In this document: in pieces, positions 437-45,214 of the stretch
Numbering within the stretch: position 1 is the first letter of the stretch
How the letters are laid out: each line of letters starts with the position of its first letter
Origin: Chiloscyllium plagiosum
Taxonomy: Eukaryota
Reading direction: 5' to 3'
Assembly: GCF_004010195.1 (NCBI RefSeq)
Contig: NC_057738.1
Coordinates: 9,863,103-9,927,102 of the forward strand
Length of the DNA stretch: 64,000 bases
Translations under genes and position numbers: made by a program
The notes under the pieces: model-generated
What the model saw: only the letters and a program-made list of their open reading frames with translations
Database searches by the model: none
What the model was told of the DNA's origin: nothing

Positions 437-3330
437 TGGCAATCATGTGGGCCACTTTGTCCTGCATGCTGTCAAGCTTGATTGCCGTTGGAGCTGTACA
501 TATCCAGGCAAGATAGAGCATTCCATCACACTCCTGACTTGTGCCTTGTAGGTGGTGGGCAGGCTTTGGGGAGTCAGGAGGCAAGTTACTCTCTGCAGTG
601 TTTCTAGCCTCTGACTTGCACTTGTAACAACTGTGTTTATGTGGTGAGTGGAGTTGAGTTTCTGGTCAATGGTAAACCCCAGGATTTAGGTAGTGGGGAA
701 TTTAGTGATGGTAATACCACTGAGTGTCATAGGTGGTGGCGAGATTATCTCATATTGTAGATGATCCTTGCCTGGCATCTGTGAGGCATGAATGTCACTT
801 GCCACTTGCCAGCCCACACCTGGATATTGTCCAGGTCTTCTTGTATTTCAAGATGGACTGCTTCAGTATCTCAGGAGTCGCAAATGATGAACATTGTGCA
901 AACATCGACAAACATTCCCACTGGTCCAAAGATGTGCAGGTTAGGTGAATTGGCCATGCTAAACTGCCCATGGTGTTCAGGGATATGTAGGTTAGGTGCA
1001 CTAGTCAGGGGTAAGTGTAGAGTAATAGGATTGGGAAATGGGTCTGGATGGATTACTCTTCAGAGGGTCAGTGTGGACTTCTTGGGCCAAAGGACCTGTT
1101 TCCACACTGTGAGGACTCTATGTTTCTGATCTTATCATGGAGGATAGGTTTTTGATGAAGCAGCAGATGTTTAGGCCAAAGACACTACCCCAAGGAAGTC
1201 TGGGAGACATGTCCTGGAGCTGAGGTAACTAACCTCAAACGACCACAACCATCTTCCTGTGTGTCAGGTATGACTCCAACCAGCAGAGAATTTGCCACGA
1301 TAACTACGGATTCCAGCTTTGCTCAGGCTCAGTGATACCATATTTGGTCAAATGTGGTTTTGATATCAAGCACTGTCACTCACCTCCCCTCTGGAAGGTA
1401 GCTCTTTTGCCCATATTTGAACCAAGGCTGAAATGAGGCAAGGAGTGGAGTGGCCCTCGCAGAACCCAAACTGACCATCACAGAACAGGTGTTGTTTGAA
1501 AGCACCGTTGATGGAATCTTCCATCACTTGACAGAGAATTGCAAGGAGCCTAATGGGGCAGTAACTGGCTGGGTTGGATTGGTCCTGCTGTTTATGTCGA
1601 GCACACACCTGGACAATTTTCCACTTTGTCAGGTTGATACCAGCGTTAGAACTGTACTGAAACAGCTTGGTTAGGACAGCAGCAGAGCCTAGAGCACATC
1701 AGTATTGCCAGAATCTTGTCAGGGCCCATTGTCTTTGCAGTAACCAGTGCTTTCAGCCATTTCTTGATATCACGTGGAGAGAAGCGAACTGACTAAAGTC
1801 AGGTATCTGTGATGCTGGGAATCATGGATGAGGCCAAGATGGATCATCCACTCAGCGCTTCTGACTGAAGACTGCTGCAAATGCTTTAGCCTTATCTTTT
1901 GCACTGATGTGCTGGGCTCTTCCATCATTGAGGATGGAGGTACTTGTGGAGCCTCCTCCTTCAGTGAACTGTTTAATTGTCCACTGGCTGTGGCAGGACT
2001 GCAGACCTTAGATTTGATCAGTTGATCGTGGAATCACTTGCTGCTTTTGCTGTTTGACATACAAATAGACCTGTTTGCTAGCTTCACTAGTTTAACACCT
2101 GATTTATAGGACTACCTGGTGCTGCTCCTGTCATGCCCTCCCTGGATGCTGCCTGACCTGCTGAGCTTTTCCAGCAACACATTTCCATACAAATAGACCT
2201 GTTTGCTAGCTTCACTAGTTTAACACCTGATTTATAGGACTACCTGGTGCTGCTCCTGTCATGCCCTCCTGAACTCTCCACTGAACCGAGGTTGATTTCC
2301 TGGCTTTATAGTAATGGTTAAATGGGGGATATGTTGGGCAATGAGGTTGCATATTGTACTGGAGTACAATACTGTTGTTGATGGTTCACAGCACCTCTCT
2401 GCTGCCCAGTCTTCAGCTGTTCAACCTGTTTGAAGTCTGTCCCATTTCGCACGGTGATAGTGCCACACAACATGATGGAGGTTATTGTACATGTCAAGGT
2501 GGGACTTCATCTCCACAAGGACCATGTGGTGATCACTCTGACCGATACTGCCATAAGCAGATGCATCTGCAGTTGGCAGATTAATAAGGATGAGGCAAGT
2601 CTGCTTTTCTATTTTGTTGGTTCCCTCACCACCTGCTACTGACTCAGTCTAACCACTATGACTTTTAGAATCCGATCAGCTCAATCAGCAATGTTGCTGC
2701 CAAAACACTCAGTGGTGGATGTTGAAATCCCCCACCCAGAGTACGCAATGTGTCCATGCCACCCTCAGTGCTTCCTCTAAGTGTTGTCCAAGTGGTACTG
2801 ATTCAAACAGCCGACGGAGGATGGTCCATGGTAATCAGCAGGAGTTTTCCTTGCCCCTGTTTTACTTTAGGCCATAAGGTGTCATGGGGTCCACACACAA
2901 TGTTGAGGACTCCCAGAGCAATTCCTTCCCAACTGTACACCACCATGCCTCCACCTCCACTGGATTTGTCCTGCTGATGGAACTGGACTTATCCAGGGAT
3001 GGTGATAGCGATGTCTAGGACAATAATGTGTGAGATGTGATTCCATGAGTATGACTGCATCAGGCTCTTCCTTGACTAGTCTGTGAGACAGCTCTTCCAA
3101 TGTTGGCACTACCTTCCAGATGTTAGGAAAGAGGATTTTGCATGGTCAACAGGGCTATTTCTGTTGCTGTTTATTCCAGTGTCTAGGTCAATGTCAGACG
3201 GTCTGTCGAGTTTCATTTCTTTTGAAAGACTTGCAGCCATTGGCAAAACTGAGTGGCTCGCGAGGCCATTTCAGAGGGCAGGTGAGAGTCAACCACATTG
3301 CCGTCTGTCTGGAGGTCACATTTAGACCTG
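437..3330 (-). mobile_element. Degenerate CR1-like LINE (second family), spanning endonuclease to RT C-terminus
   Basis: Minus-strand remnants: LEELSHRLVKEEPDAVILMESHL (APE N-terminus), SNPASYCPIRLL and QFGFCEGHS (RT), YKAQVRSVME (RT C-terminus). Many stops and frameshifts; interrupted by a SINE at 922-1127. Confidence 0.8.
922..1127 (+). mobile_element. HE1-type SINE, 3' part, inserted in LINE
   Basis: ccaaagatgtgcaggttaggtgaattggccatgctaaa...cctgtttccacactgt, shared with the full copies elsewhere in the window. Confidence 0.8.
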
Positions 3331-36774: not shown

Positions 36775-36842
36775 CAACTCATTTTATTCCAACTCATTTT
36801 ATTCCAACTCATTTTATTCCAACTCATTTTATTCCAACTCAT
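36775..36842 (+). repeat. 15-bp tandem repeat (caactcattttattc), ~4.5 copies
   Basis: Perfect head-to-tail units with no spacers. Confidence 0.95.
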
Positions 36843-36880
36843 ACATTATAAAAACCCATTGATTACTTGTTCCATTCATA

Positions 36881-37175: not shown

Positions 37176-39389
37176 TGCACCACACTAATTACCTTTTAGT
37201 TAACCTGTAACCATCACCTGCTCACTAGATCCAAACAGGCATTTGCTACCTGACAATAATCATGACAACAGAAGGTAATTAAACAACAAATAAAAGGTTA
37301 ACAATGTCAATTGAATAACTACTGTACTAAATCAGTAATGTTTCCAAATGATGAATATAAATAAACCATTGCTGAGAAGTGATTTCAGCTTCACAGAACC
37401 AATAAAATGAGACAAATTGGGTGGTGTGACCTAAGTTATTACATAACATCAAAATGAAAGAGTGCTGTACTGGATCCAGAATTACATTCAATTACATTGT
37501 AATTGCAATGGCTCAGCCAAATGAAACCATGTTTCACCAATGCAGTGCACATGAAGCCTAATGCAGTCACTGAAGTGCTCGATAACAATGTTTATCAATT
37601 TCTTAGCAGATGTAAAATGACTGTAGTGGCAAAAGCAACTCTTTGTTTGAAGATTTTTTTTTTCAAAAAGCAACATACTCGTCAAAACTGTTGCCAAGAA
37701 GTAAAGCTAATGGTACTTCATCAGTTGAACATAATTGCAACATGGTGGAAATCATGGTAAATTTAAATAAAAGTAGAATGTATTATAATTAATAAAGCTG
37801 CATCTCTTACATACCAGCTAGAATTCTGTGGTCACAAATATATTCCCACAACTTTCAGAAAATAAAAAAAGAAAGAGACCTTCTCACTGTGTGAACAAAG
37901 TCGACAACAGCATACAGCAAGATGGTCCTACAATCAAAAAATCTCAGGCTGGTTCACAAACTCGACTATGCTAAACATTAGAGGATAGATGAGATTGGAT
38001 CTCAGCATTATCTCAACAACAGTCACATAAATCTTTTGGTTGTTCAGTACTTGTTTTGGGTCCTTGTTTGGAAGCTTCAGTCTATAGCTTCCAAAGTAAC
38101 AAAGGAGAGACATGCATTCTCCCAGGAAGATACCAATCTCAGAAGCCAGAGGAACAGCATCAATTTTAAACCCAGGATGACAGGCAGACACACATCCAGA
38201 GAAGTTGAAGCAGATGGGCGAGGGATACAGTAGTTATTAATCATGGAGGTGGGACATCGGAGGTGGCAGGACATGGATTTGCACAAAAACCACATTTAGC
38301 ATGGGCTGGGAAAGAATAAAAGACCTGAAAGCAGCAGAACAACTAGAAAGTAATGGTGCAAAAATGAGTCTAGTACAACCAAATGACTCTGGCAACAGTC
38401 AAAGTTTAAATTAGCCAATATTTTTGCTACAGAGCAACAGAAATACATGCTCTCTTATTGGAAAGAAAGACAATTTAAAAGTAAGATTGATTTCAGAAGT
38501 GTAAATGAATAGACCTTCCACCAGTTCACATGACTAAAGAGCTGATCCAATTACACTCGAGTAACTACAAGGAAAACAGGAAATTTCATATCTGCTTTTT
38601 GAAAAGTCAAAATATTAACTCTTTTTCTTTGCCTCAGGAAATAGAAGTTACTGCCTCAAAAAAAAAAAAACCTTTGGGGTCCAGTTTTGAGTTAAGTACC
38701 ACACAGCCCCAATTTTAAAGTAAGTTTCAGGAAAAATATTTTAAGCAGAAAAATTAAATACTCTGCCTTAGTTTCAATGTTTATGAAAAGCTTTTCTTTT
38801 AACTTGAAGCATTTTTTTTGGTATTATCCCTTCAGTTCTAAAACAATGTTTTAAAAACAAAAATCGCACAACCTTTCTCTCTTTATTACTACAGAAAGAC
38901 AGTATTTTTTACTTGTTTTCAACAGAGAATACCTGGAAATAAATGAGTAAGTTTTTTCCCTATAATCTGTATTTACTGTCTTGATTGTAGACATTTGCAG
39001 TCTATAAATAAAATTCCTACCATTTTTGCCGCATAGTTTATGTGCCTTTCAAAGAAAGAAAAACAAATGCCACGTCAGTTGAGATTCTGGACTTCTCAAC
39101 TACTTTATGAAAAACAGTTACTGATAAAGAAGAGAACTTAAGAAAAATACTGCCTGCTGTGACGTGTGGTGAAGCATGTTCAATCGAACCTATCCTAGAG
39201 GACATTAAACAATTATTTGAATAAAAACAAAGTGCAAGATGACAGGGAAAAGACAGGGAGATAGAGTCAATTCTGCTATAACCCAGTAGTTCCATTCTCA
39301 TGCAATCCTGTGCTATAAGAAAATCACATAACAGCAGCACCATTTAAAATAATGAAGCCGGATCCGCGTTATAACCCATATACTCTTTA

Positions 39390-39939
39390 TGTCATCCCGT
39401 TTCCTCTTCAGTCGAAGTAAAATGCTTGGAGACACAGTATAGCTTTACCTGCTTCAACTTTATTCCAGGCCCAGAGGAGGGGGAGAGAGAGAGCGAGAGA
39501 GCGAATTGATCACCCATGTGCACAGAGACAGGAGTTCATAGTCTTCTCTCGAACATGAGTTTCTCTATGAATTATATAATTATTTTACAGAAAGGAGCAC
39601 CCAGATAAGGCAACACACATATTGACTGGGTGACCATTACAATCAGTGAGTGTCAATAGTAAAGATAAAGCTGTCTGCTGTTATACAATGAATAACTGGC
39701 TTCATATCATGAATACTTTTCACCTTGTTAAACTGACCTCACATTATGAATGCTGCCTCATCTTGTTAAATGGCTCTACATAATGACTGCTTTTCCAACT
39801 TGTTAACCCATTACCCTTGCCTCTTGCAGCCCATTGTTAAGTATTAGTTCTTATCTGATCTGAGTCATGCTCAGCTGAACCTCTTGTTTCACAAAACTCA
39901 ACTCTTTCCCTACATGCTTGTACCCTATACACATTCTCA
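39390..39939 (-). repeat. 3' LTR
   Basis: Minus strand begins TGAGAATG directly after the PPT and ends ...GATGACA; AATAAA at ~39459-39464. Confidence 0.88.
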
Positions 39940-39951
39940 TTCCCTCCTTTT
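39940..39951 (-). promoter_or_regulatory. Polypurine tract
   Basis: AAAAGGAGGGAA immediately 5' of the 3' LTR. Confidence 0.85.
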
Positions 39952-40287
39952 ATCATGATAACCACAGAGATGGCACTACCAGCTTTCAAAAGACTCTCTC
40001 AGCCAGTATTTAAGTTATTGACACACTGCATACAATGATTATAACAACAAAAATTACAGTAATTAGAGTGTGAAGAATTCTCCCAAGTGGTAAAAAAGTT
40101 CACCAGTAAAGTTCTTAAATCCACGGTCCTTAGTGACCACTCCATCCCCTCCAAGTCGAGTGGAAATGAGCCAGTTCTCCAAAATCTCCTTTAGTAAACT
40201 CTAAGGTAAAAACAAAATTCAGGCCTGTCCTTGTGCATCACTCCATGGAGAAATCTGATTTCTTGGATAAGGGCAGTTAAATGTTTC

Positions 40288-40608
40288 ACAAAACTGATGA
40301 GACTTCAGTCCTTGTAGAGATGCTTCAGATGGCGGATACCAGTGTATCTAAACATGCAGTGAAGCAGCTGCAGCTGCAGGCTAGTTGAGTGCAGCATTCT
40401 TCACTGTTTCTGTTCCCGCTCTGCCGTTAAATGTAACAAAATCAACTGGTTGGTTTGATGTTACCTTGATCTGTGAACCCTCCTATCGCTTAAATGATCG
40501 AAAGACAAAGTAATGCTCACGTAGTTTAATGTCCATAGGAAGGCCACTAACAAAAAGCGTACCAACCTCCTCTTCACTGTTGTTAATTTCTTCACTTTTC
40601 ATGCTCAT
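40288..40608 (-). pseudogene. RBPMS2: Intronless, internally deleted RBPMS2-like (Hermes family RRM) pseudogene carried inside the LTR element
   Basis: Single frame, manual translation: [104 protein letters not shown]. Recalled RBPMS2: [61 protein letters not shown]...AAFTYPAAAAA.LHAQ.RWYP...QGWKSRQFC. Three in-frame stops, no frameshift. Confidence 0.92.
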
Positions 40609-42349
40609 GACTGGGGAGGTGATGGAATCCGTTGGATCAGGTTGTGGAGGGGTGGGTGATGATCCAAAGGCGTACTTTACCTATTAATGGAAAAACTCTA
40701 GAGAAGATATTATCTGCTGAAAGTATCTTTGCATTTCTTCTCTCATTCTTTCTTTGCCAAGGTAGTTATCAGTATGAAGACAGTCACACATTTAACTATA
40801 CTAAATGGTGTCTGCCTATTTCAACATTCTTTGAATTCTTGAAGTCTATTACTCTGCTCACTATTTATGATATTATCAACTTTTATACAATCCATAAACT
40901 TCTAAATTGTACTGCCTAAACAATTCAGTCAATTATAGATAACAATCAATGGTCCTAAAATTAAACCCTCTGGTACCTCCATTCAAAAACTGTTTTCCTT
41001 TAACAAATTGATACTTGGCTAACGTGAAAGCTGTCAGGAAACGCATTTCCAAAATCTAGAACAGCAAGAAAACAACAAAATGTTTCCTGTGCTTTAACAA
41101 TTGAAGAGGCAGCTTCAGTACTGATTTAAATTTCAAATATTCATGGGAAACAAATGTTGAATATTTTAAAAATTTTTCTCCAAATGAAACTTACCTAATA
41201 AAAGTTGGAATGACAGTGGCAACTTTGGTAGCGTTCAACATTCTTTATATTTCATATTGCATATTGTACTTGCAATATGAAGGGGGCCAATGAAGTCTTA
41301 ACAATAATTAACAGAATTTAAGCAGCTGAGCCTCAATTTCCAGTATTCTCCAAAATCTTAACAAAACACCAAAATTAAAATACACTCTTCTTTTTGTGAA
41401 TACTCAATAAAAAAAACACAGCAAAGATATTATAATACAATACCCTCATCTTGCTAAAGCATGACCACTAACCCAACAGTTTTTTTTAAACAGGCAATAT
41501 AGAATTTGAAACAAATCAGGGGCTCAAGCACTCAATTTGTTTTAAGGTTACAAGTTTGATCATTTTAAAAAGGACATAATGTTGTACAATTTCAATGTTA
41601 AAACATTACATAGCCTACAAAACATACTAAATTGAGATCCTGATTCAAACAAGGCAAAACAATTACTTCAAAGGATTTTCCGAACCAGTATTTTAACAAA
41701 CCAAAAATTTTAAACATCAAACATTCACAACATGGCACAATTTACATTGAAACGTTCCCTTTTCAACCCAAGTATTAGTACAGCCTTAATTTCAGCATTT
41801 TTTTTGTATCCTCTCTCTGAAATTACACCTTATAAAAAGGGAAAGCCCTTGCCGCAGACCACATGGTGCCGCAATCCAAGCCACTCTCTTCCCCCTGAAT
41901 TGAGACTCTCAGAGCCTCAAATTCAAGTTGAAGACTTGAACCCCTTTCTCACTTTGCTCCTCACGGGGGCTCAAAACCCAATTAAACACAGAACTCAAAT
42001 TCGACTTAAAGAAAGCCCAAAGCTCACTTAACACGGAGCTCAAAGCTCGCTTAAACACAGAACTCAAAGCTCAGCACAATGAACTTAAACCTCAATTAAA
42101 CCCACCCAGGAGACTCTAAGCCCAGTACCTCGCAGAGGACTCCAACTTCTGTTTGCTTGCAAAATTGTGTCTCTCGACTGAACTAATTACCATTCGAGGA
42201 ATACAAAGCGATCAAGCGAGGGGACCACCTCCAGCACACAGGAATATCGAGAGGGACCAAGGTTTAAAATCTTACCTTATGGGCCTGTCCGTCTTGAGAC
42301 AATTTCCCAGGCAGCCGCCGATATCGTCTGATTGTAACTACTCGTTTGG

Positions 42350-42367
42350 ATCCTGCCGACTACACCA
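42350..42367 (-). promoter_or_regulatory. Primer-binding site, tRNA-Ser type
   Basis: TGGTGTAGTCGGCAGGAT on minus; 17/18 complementary to the recalled vertebrate tRNA-Ser 3' end (ATCCTGCCGACTACGCCA). Confidence 0.85.
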
Positions 42368-42368
42368 A

Positions 42369-42925
42369 TACTCGCGTCGCATTCACCCCATCCCCACCAT
42401 CTCCCCCCTCCAGTTGAAACAAAATGCTCAGAGACCTTGTAGTTTTACCTCCTTCATCTTTATTCCTGGCCCTGGAGGGAGGGAGAGAACACGATCACCC
42501 ATGTACACAGAGACATGAGTTCACAGTCTTCTCTCAAACAAGTTTCCCAATAAAGTATTGAGTCATTTTACAGGAAGGAGTATCTAGATAAGACAACAGT
42601 CGAATTGATTGGGTGACCATTACGATCAGTGAGTGTCAATAGTAAAGATTAAGCCATCTGCTATTACGCAATGAATAACTAGTTTCACCTCACGCTTTTC
42701 ACCTTGTTAAGCTGCTCTCATATACTGAATGCTACCTCATCTTATTAAATGGCTCTATATAATAAATACTTTTCCACCTTGTTAACCCATTACCCTTGCC
42801 TCTTGCACCCCATTGTTAACTATTAGTTCTTATCTGATCTGGGTCATGCTCAGCTGAACCTCTTGTTTCACAAAACTCAAAACTCAACTCTTTCCCTACA
42901 TGTTTGTACCCTATATACATTCTCA
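42369..42925 (-). repeat. 5' LTR
   Basis: Aligns by eye with 39390-39939 and starts TGAGAATG. The U5 end next to the PBS is poorly matched, so the inner boundary is approximate. Confidence 0.85.
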
Positions 42926-45214
42926 TTTAGAATGAGTGTCCCTAATTCGTCAATCATGTTACAGATAATTTGCGTTAACAAAACGTGAATTATAGCAGAA
43001 CATCCTGTAGGCATAAAGTAAAAATATCAGCTGATGTAGACACAATGAGCTGAATGCCCTCCTTTTGACCCATAACAATTTTGGGATTGAGTGCACCTGT
43101 CACTAGTCTAACTTATAACAACAGTGGTCCTAACAGGAACCTAGTGATCCAGTACTTAATTCTTCTCAATCTGACATAATGCTTAAAATCAGGATTTTTT
43201 TTTAAAGTTTCTGCTGTTTTAATATCCAACATGAACTGGTTTGGGTTTTCTAGGAAGTTTTATCAATGTTTAAAGGTCAAATGGTGCATAATAATGAAAT
43301 TTTGTATGAGGAATCAACTGGAGGAATATCTGTATGAGAAAACAGTAGTCAACAAGGGCTCACATCAGTGAAAATCCTCACCACTGATTTTGAGATTAGA
43401 ACAACTCAAAACGTACTACTGTGGGAACTCAGACTTTCCAAAGGAATTTGAAAAGCTTCTTGTTAAAGCTAATAGCCAGATTCAAAGCTGTGCCCAAATA
43501 GGATAAAAAAAATTGGGCAATTAAAGTAGCTGAAGGTTGAAGATAACAGATATCATTTTTAGGAGTCTGTCAGATTGAAAATAATGAAGTCAGGATCACT
43601 CTGGTTCTGGTTAGTACCTTTGCAATTTGTAATTCAGACAGTAACAGATACTTGCAATCACAGAACTGAGAAGGATGCAACTTCCTTGTCATCTACACAT
43701 TGTTCATATTCAAATAACCACTCAAAACCGTCTTGAATGCCTCAAATCAAACCTGCTTCCACCACAATTCAAGGCAGTTGATCCTGATGTGGACCACTTC
43801 TCGTGTTTGATTTTCTGAATAAAGCATGACAATCAGGAGAGCCTGCACATGCACCAGAATGAAACTGGCATCCTTGCAGGTGGGTTTACTAGTGCTGTTG
43901 GGAAGAGTTTAAATTCACTTGGTAGGGAGAGGTAACAAAGTCTTAGTACTCTAGGGGCATACTTTTGTAAAGGAACCAAGGAATGAGATGTTTCACGGGA
44001 GTAAGGGAAGGCTGGATGGCCTCTACTTTAAGGTTAAGAGTACCATATCCAAGACAGATGTGATAAGAGCGTGGATGAGGACTTGAAATGTAATAATATT
44101 CAAGGTCTCAGCCAAGTGCTGGGAAGTAGGCTGATTTAGATAGGTCGGTGTAAACATAATGGACCATTGGGCCTCTTCTGTGCTGTGTGATTCTATATAA
44201 ATTAAGCTGAATCAGTTGATCAGAACCTCTGGATCAATAACAGTCCACCAAAAAAGACTTGCAACTTAAGAATTAAATGATAGTTTCACAGAGAGATTTG
44301 CAGAGGCTGAGTCAGATCTACATCCAGACTTTATCAACACATCATGGCTGAACATACCTCAAGATCCAGAGAAATTCAATGACAAAAATGTCAAAATTAA
44401 AATAAAACATTAATCATCACTAACATTTAAAAAAGGCATCTCAAATCATAGGCTGGATTTTAAATTTTCTTACAGAATAATATACTTGCAGAGTTTTTTT
44501 TTGGAAACAGATGATGCAGAAGGACTGATTTTACACTTGGTATTATTGAGGGTACTATTGGTTCAGAATAATTGCAGACCATGTGTAATTATACGCTCCT
44601 CTTAGCACTGCATTTATTGAACAAACACTGTAAAAAAAAAAAGCATTAACTCTGAAAAGTAAGGGGTGAAGGAAATTCTCAATTCATATATTTCTTAGCT
44701 AGTAACTAAATTTATATCCTTATGATTTGGCAACTAAAACTGTACACAGTACTCCAAAATGTGGTTTCTATAAGAGTCTGTGAAAGTTCAGCAGAACTTC
44801 CCTAATTTTAAAATTTCTTTTTCCAGAAATAACTGTTTGCATTTGCCTTAACGACTCAAGTTGCAACTTTTAAAAGATATATATATATAGTACTTTCAGA
44901 TTTTCCTTTTCCATGTAATACGCAATCATTTTTGTCTGGGAGAAGTATGAAGTATAATTTTCTATGTTAAAATTAATTTAGCAAGTTAAAACATTCTGCA
45001 AGTTCATTCGTGCTGTGCTATAACTTGAAGTCCTCCACAATCACAAAATACTAAAACTTGGAAAACAATCAACATTTACCAATAGAGTGACTATTTCTTC
45101 TTAGTGCGATGCAAATTTACAAATTAAATTTTGAATTCAAAAATCTAAATTATAACTATGAATTGTGAACAGTGGATTTTATTAATACTGCAAAAAGCTT
45201 TGATTAATGATTCA

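Follow-up and report, generated by a model that had tools for sequence, protein, structure and literature searches.

A dead provirus in the bamboo shark genome belongs to a non-autonomous family with a host RBPMS2 mRNA that was probably captured in place of env

How does the mRNA of a host gene come to lie, spliced and without introns, inside a retroviral frame, and what has become of it there? The locus that raises this question occupies positions 42925-39390, on the minus strand, of a 64,000-nucleotide stretch of the whitespotted bamboo shark (Chiloscyllium plagiosum) genome, which we refer to as the window. We consider it very likely that this element is a dead copy of a non-autonomous endogenous retrovirus (ERV) family, whose RBPMS2 cargo was captured once by template switching that replaced env and was carried from then on as a non-coding passenger. 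The element has the whole frame of a provirus: direct long terminal repeats (LTRs) of ~550 nt with TG...CA ends, which are ~81% identical (K2P 0.16), a target-site duplication (TSD), a primer-binding site (PBS) and a polypurine tract (PPT). An earlier note on this DNA had proposed these parts and a splice donor, and all of them were found again. In the list below, which runs from the 5' to the 3' end of the element, family A denotes the window element and its close relatives and family B the older carriers of the same cargo.

42926..42929, no strand: TSD TTTA, 5' side (from sequence)
42372..42925, minus strand: 5' LTR, type A; poly(A) signal at 42464; last ~25 nt degraded
42350..42367, minus strand: PBS for tRNA-Ser(AGA), by comparison with the genome's own tRNA-Ser(AGA)
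42270..42278, minus strand: putative splice-donor-like site, GT at 42275 (from sequence)
41846..42269, minus strand: leader with a tandem repeat array of variable length; likely packaging region
40786..41845, minus strand: AT-rich non-coding segment common to family A; 624 first-look candidates in the genome
40656..40785, minus strand: integrase remnant in which a zinc-finger piece is fused to a C-terminal one; aligns at 78-89% with copies of the parental ERV
40635..40655, minus strand: short gag-like piece at the 5' cargo junction, left by a ~175-nt deletion relative to family B
40394..40634, minus strand: RBPMS2 mRNA 5' block, with the end of the 5' UTR, exons 1-3 and most of exon 4; 85-87% to four host exons
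40078..40393, minus strand: RBPMS2 mRNA 3' block, with the end of exon 6, exon 7 (..QFC) and ~200 nt from the start of the 3' UTR exon; aligns with host exons 7 and 8 at 85-87%
39952..40085, minus strand: 3' crossover and env tail; 8-nt word at 40085-40078 common to host 3' UTR and env
39940..39951, minus strand: PPT (from sequence), conserved across copies
39390..39939, minus strand: 3' LTR, type A; poly(A) signal at 39464
39386..39389, no strand: TSD TTTA, 3' side (from sequence)

The PBS agrees with the genome's tRNA-Ser(AGA) at 17 of 18 bases, and two other copies match it at 18/18. Among 40 copies examined, the donor-like site could be located in 13, nine of which have the GT. The leader array (41900-42160 in the window) consists of ~57-nt units that contain a tRNA T-loop-like motif and vary greatly in number among copies; in copy L179 the array (1500-3025) comprises more than 15 such units. 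The AT-rich 1.1-kb segment gave no Pfam or Rfam match, and the top matches of three genome searches contained no outlier that would point to its source. When eight of its top unclassified matches were checked, seven ran into the integrase remnant and one into another repeat. The earlier statement that no gag or pol is recognizable holds for Pfam, which returned 0 matches for the window internal region in three frames, but not for 40785-40656, which aligns with integrase pieces of related full-length ERVs; the window copy retains ~150 nt of integrase. Rfam gave no match for the window element. Tandem CAC motifs are the target of RBPMS, and they are not enriched in the element. Just outside the 3' LTR lies a separate high-copy repeat (39188-39350) at which contigs break, and a 15-nt tandem repeat with about five perfect units is found at 36775-36849.

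The cargo derives from a gene that is still in place. The host RBPMS2 gene, on contig C40, has eight exons across 106 kb, encodes 194 residues, and is 100% identical in its exons to P0010, annotated as whitespotted bamboo shark RBPMS2a. (The last exon of the P0010 isoform, C40:25109259-25109402, is a piece of a repeat that occurs many times in the locus; the conserved ..SRQFC lies in another exon.) All eight exons are contiguous in one copy of the element, L106, and the internal junctions are bounded by AG and GT in the host. The window cargo, which is sense-oriented relative to the element, contains host exons 1-4, 7 and 8 at 85-87% identity and no introns, and thus has the form of an LTR-mediated retrocopy, a spliced host mRNA within LTR sequence. 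It begins with an ATG at 40608 and ends with ..QFC at ~40288, as the earlier note had described; the coding sequence is, however, not complete. It lacks 255 nt (85 codons) in frame, a gap that runs from the end of exon 4 through exon 5 and takes in most of exon 6, and contains three in-frame stops. The junction of this deletion, near 40394, is family-wide. We saw neither a poly(A) tail nor a TSD of its own around the RBPMS2 segment, in agreement with the earlier note, so the two marks of an L1-type processed pseudogene are absent. Of the two findings that the earlier note had named as refuting capture by an ERV, the former is such a tail or TSD together with family members that lack the RBPMS2 segment, and the latter a failure to align with shark RBPMS2 or RBPMS mRNA; neither was found.

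The window element is one of many. A genome search with the cargo yielded 638 first-look candidates, and all 40 that were scored were near full length, the 39 other than the window copy at 81-84%. In a protein search, 150 of 835 candidates were scored, every one with E < 1e-29. Because first-look candidates are not copy numbers, we take at least 150 as a floor for family A, which probably occupies several hundred sites. The central deletion, and with it the same two cargo blocks, is found in 48/48 distinct family A copies, all retrieved with A-type queries. Of 40 copies read with their flanks, 20 had both ends called; 11 of these have perfect 4-bp TSDs, 4 have one mismatch and 5 are worse, and the perfect TSDs sit in different flanks. 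The pattern for which the earlier note had proposed to look, many loci with the same layout and junctions and different TSDs, is therefore present. Dispersed copies, common junctions, separate TSDs and the lack of intact gag/pol together characterize an amplified non-autonomous family. Some pairs of copies look like segmental duplications after insertion: L032 and L040, on one contig, are close sisters in the tree described below, and in L112 and L113 the cargo breaks off at one and the same point.

An autonomous partner, which the earlier note had suggested seeking by LTR and PBS, did not turn up. LTR-A gave 2161 first-look candidates in the genome; among 16 matches sampled from the top 40 listed, 14 are solo LTRs, of which 6 show a perfect TSD on inspection by eye, 2 are family A ends and none is a gag-pol helper. 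A search for the exact PBS-leader pattern found 2 loci only, both of them family A leaders, and LTR-A had no BLAST match to the family B or parental LTRs.

Searching the genome with the middle of RBPMS2 that family A lacks returned two host exons and 39 other loci, which define family B. Its LTR differs from that of A, its PBS is nearest to tRNA-Ser(GCT) (16/18), and it retains gag, RNase H and integrase remnants; the only stretch that A and B have in common reaches from the integrase remnant to the PPT. Family B TSDs are perfect in 2/7 cases and carry one mismatch in 3/7. Among 32 distinct B-side loci aligned, 11 contain the whole coding sequence (B1), and 17 lack the region from late exon 6 to early exon 8 (B2); of the remainder, two B2-type loci were dropped for large insertions and two are otherwise truncated or interrupted.

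A search with B's pol remnant led to relatives that carry no cargo. These elements, stretches of 8-9 kb on contigs C46, C4 and C9, share their integrase and env tail with A and B and match the Pfam profiles for RNase H, rve, integrase zinc-binding and MLV integrase C-terminal (MLVIN_C) domains. In copy L167, a cargo carrier with a gag-pol backbone, we additionally found an RVT_1 match, and in the PDB it matches MLV/XMRV RT-RNase H best (E 5e-24). These profile and PDB matches place the cassette donor in a class I (gamma/epsilon-like) ERV lineage with a pol nearest to the MLV type. Three of the cargo-free relatives have a decayed env-like frame 3' of integrase, recognized by eye (there is no Pfam env match), whose last 150 nt recur in A and B as the sequence that separates the cargo from the PPT. 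The presence of cargo-free relatives with the same integrase and env tail suggests that the mRNA took the place of env. The cargo displaces ~1.3 kb of integrase end and env, rather than being added to them.

The junctions record how this exchange may have come about. In 13 of the 20 B copies in which the site was matched, the 3' side reads as host UTR until the 8-nt word and as env from there on. An 8-nt match between env and UTR is not rare in itself, and a 10-nt word occurs elsewhere; what counts is its position at the crossover. The combination of microsimilarity with the lack of a poly(A) tail and TSD supports the earlier proposal that a host RBPMS2 mRNA was captured. The 5' switch is weaker in this respect, with only a few C-rich bases overlapping. 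There, family B presents a mosaic of integrase end, gag-like piece, an 80-nt RT piece and host 5' UTR, of which family A has lost ~175 nt, and this mosaic requires more than one switch. The same junctions bear on the idea of a LINE-made RBPMS2 retrocopy that landed in an ERV and was spread by it. LINEs are abundant here, as judged from the window's open reading frames, but the mRNA's 3' end is cut inside the UTR, the poly(A) tail and TSD are missing, integrase end and env are replaced, and the crossover falls on the shared word. These features contradict a LINE insertion, and we consider it extremely improbable.

Capture by template switching would instead have proceeded as follows. RBPMS2 mRNA would have been co-packaged with the RNA of an older class I ERV, and strand transfer via the 8-nt word would have joined the two on the 3' side. 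Most likely this took place in an older ERV with a different LTR and not in the LTR-A family. Hence, of the earlier suggestion that one ERV family both captured and spread the mRNA, the spread stands, and the capture is most likely to be moved to that older family. Family B would then have been amplified in trans, giving rise to full-length and C-terminally deleted cargo versions and losing its coding capacity. In the A lineage, the cargo has two further deletions and, in most copies, a stop; the cassette from integrase remnant to PPT would have recombined into an unrelated LTR and leader. Gag and Pol from a helper may then have copied family A in trans, in a larger and somewhat younger burst that was followed by neutral decay.

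The order of these steps is reflected in a tree of 360 shared columns, rooted on the host, that comprises 25 of the 48 family A copies, the B1 and B2 rows with <30% gaps, and L167. Family A forms one derived group nested inside B, with modest support (0.90 for the clade of all A plus five B rows). L167 (contig C17, about 28.30-28.31 Mb), which nests in A, has its A cassette within a complete gag-pol backbone that is flanked by a third LTR type. The cassette has thus moved at least twice, and the order of the transfers is tentative; L167 itself is a recombination intermediate or a side branch.

Divergence between paired LTRs, which the earlier note had recommended for dating, places the two families in the same sequence. 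In family A, LTR-pair K2P is 0.08-0.16 (median about 0.115, n=12), and in family B the median is 0.152 (n=7). The cargo distance is 0.062 for family A versus 0.078-0.079 for family B. By both measures, family A is somewhat younger than B. Whale shark and zebra shark differ by a dS of 0.061-0.111 over about 50 My, according to the part of the source used here (PMC13100897), and with this rate the LTRs have rough ages of ~50-95 My (A) and ~70-125 My (B). In sequencing runs of two other organisms, pieces with the depth of a single copy match this locus at 93-97%, near the 96-98% of the flank, which suggests an orthologous insertion; no contig spans the junction. In the epaulette shark, gene model P0002 (XP_060695149.1) starts with an A-type junction. 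Its first ~100 residues are A-type cargo fused to an astacin protease, which may reflect faulty annotation or a chimeric transcript driven by an LTR. The junction peptide was absent from the 17 longer candidates among other sharks' gene models, which is weak evidence.

Does the cargo encode anything of use? The full frame of 194 residues is found in 0/76 copies. Copy-versus-column pN/pS is 0.93-0.98 for the A 5' block, B1 and B2, and 1.36 for the A 3' block; all copies read have decayed neutrally since insertion. A stop three codons past the cargo junction, found in 30/49 family A rows (10 of the rows are not fully aligned), ends the family A frame at 75 codons, so that it spans RRM profile positions 1-58 of 70 only. 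Changes on the A lineage, a small count of 13, comprise 3 synonymous, 9 non-synonymous and 1 stop, with sites at about 1:3, and this looks like a neutral ratio. The truncated frame and these neutral-looking changes argue that the cargo is most likely a passenger rather than a useful protein. A thin sample of RNA, 101 reads from ~2% of one run, included none at >=99% identity and no donor-acceptor joint. Separately, three family A copies (P0011, P0162 and P0163) are annotated as RBPMS2-like genes, of which P0163 reads through the usual stop position and reaches ..QF.

For the early phase of family B, an initial benefit from the protein has to be weighed. The captured frame could first have been useful to the virus, with RBPMS2 protein made from a spliced RNA behind the env acceptor, in the way that v-onc genes or crocodilian KIT-ligand might be, and have become dispensable later. 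In line with this idea, the full coding sequence was captured, in none of 192 B1 columns do most copies read a stop, and 56/58 matched copies keep an acceptor-like AG (40682-40681) in the integrase remnant. The commonest codons of B1 also differ from the host by 12 synonymous and 6 non-synonymous changes (p=3e-4). The host branch alone, however, predicts ~10 synonymous changes (0.069 x 149 sites), so that this excess is not evidence of selection in the element. Moreover, the commonest forms are those that lost parts of the protein (B2 with 17/28 classified long copies, A with hundreds), the A frame stops within the RRM, and B residues depart from the host where the host residue is the same as in fish. 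An intact frame under purifying selection, as in v-onc genes, was not found, and we regard an early protein benefit as unlikely.

The cargo might also have served as RNA. As an address label that provides a Balbiani-body signal, it could have raised germline transmission, with the protein discarded and the cassette passed on to an unrelated LTR family that went on to reach hundreds of sites. Each of the three main cargo forms (A, B1 and B2) retains the 5' coding block and ~150 nt of 3' UTR, and copy number went up as coding capacity went down. In the portion of the literature consulted, the Balbiani body is described as enriched in hermes RNA in Xenopus and in maternal rbpms2a RNA in zebrafish (PMC6049948), which would fit such a label and makes an oocyte origin of the captured mRNA plausible by analogy. 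Yet internal deletions spare the ends by default, and the 3' UTR columns are 7-8.5% off the host, no less than expected. The captured part of the UTR is limited to its first ~200 nt, and the literature consulted, as far as it goes, maps no localisation signal there. An address label is therefore very unlikely in our estimation, and a passenger without coding function remains the preferred reading.

Taken together, these elements form an unusually complete fossil record of germline transduction within one vertebrate genome, from env-bearing parent through first capture and deletion series to a new LTR. The copies also give rise to spurious RBPMS2-like gene models, of which three are in this species and one is the astacin fusion in the epaulette shark. 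More speculatively, small RNAs against a gene related to sex and oocytes could arise from these copies, which are 85% identical and number in the hundreds.

A description of an RBPMS2-carrying shark ERV family was not found in the open-access literature searched. The capture of host mRNA by ERVs as such is known; unusual here are the scale, the lack of selection on the reading frame and the move to a second LTR. Acutely transforming retroviruses likewise have defective genomes in which host cDNA replaces viral genes and depend on helpers, but their v-onc frames are selected and expressed, whereas the shark elements show no sign of selection at the protein level. LTR-mediated retrocopies in animals, including zebrafish and chicken (Tan et al. 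2016, PMC5131818), resemble the shark chimera in their 3'-truncated mRNA between LTR sequences, microsimilarity at the switches and lack of poly(A) and TSD. In the parts of that paper used here they are single or few copies (one to five for maize Bs1), whereas the shark chimera is an abundant family. The same source cites human FAM8A1, captured by HERV-K (Jamain et al. 2001, as cited in PMC5131818), again a germline transduction of host mRNA by an ERV with microsimilarity and now a pseudogene; the shark case differs by its series of deleted cargo forms and probably by its scale. In two crocodilian families, CrocERV31 with nectin3 and CrocERV29 with KIT-ligand, an ERV likewise captured a host mRNA, which in CrocERV31 stands in place of env and spread by retrotransposition (Chong et al. 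2014, PMC4299795). As reported in the sections of that paper drawn on here, they comprise six and nine copies with frames under purifying selection, unlike the shark family with its hundreds of copies, truncated neutral frame, and second LTR and primer tRNA. The shark family shows that a host mRNA, once captured, can multiply about a hundredfold beyond what is published for crocodilians, without sign of protein selection.
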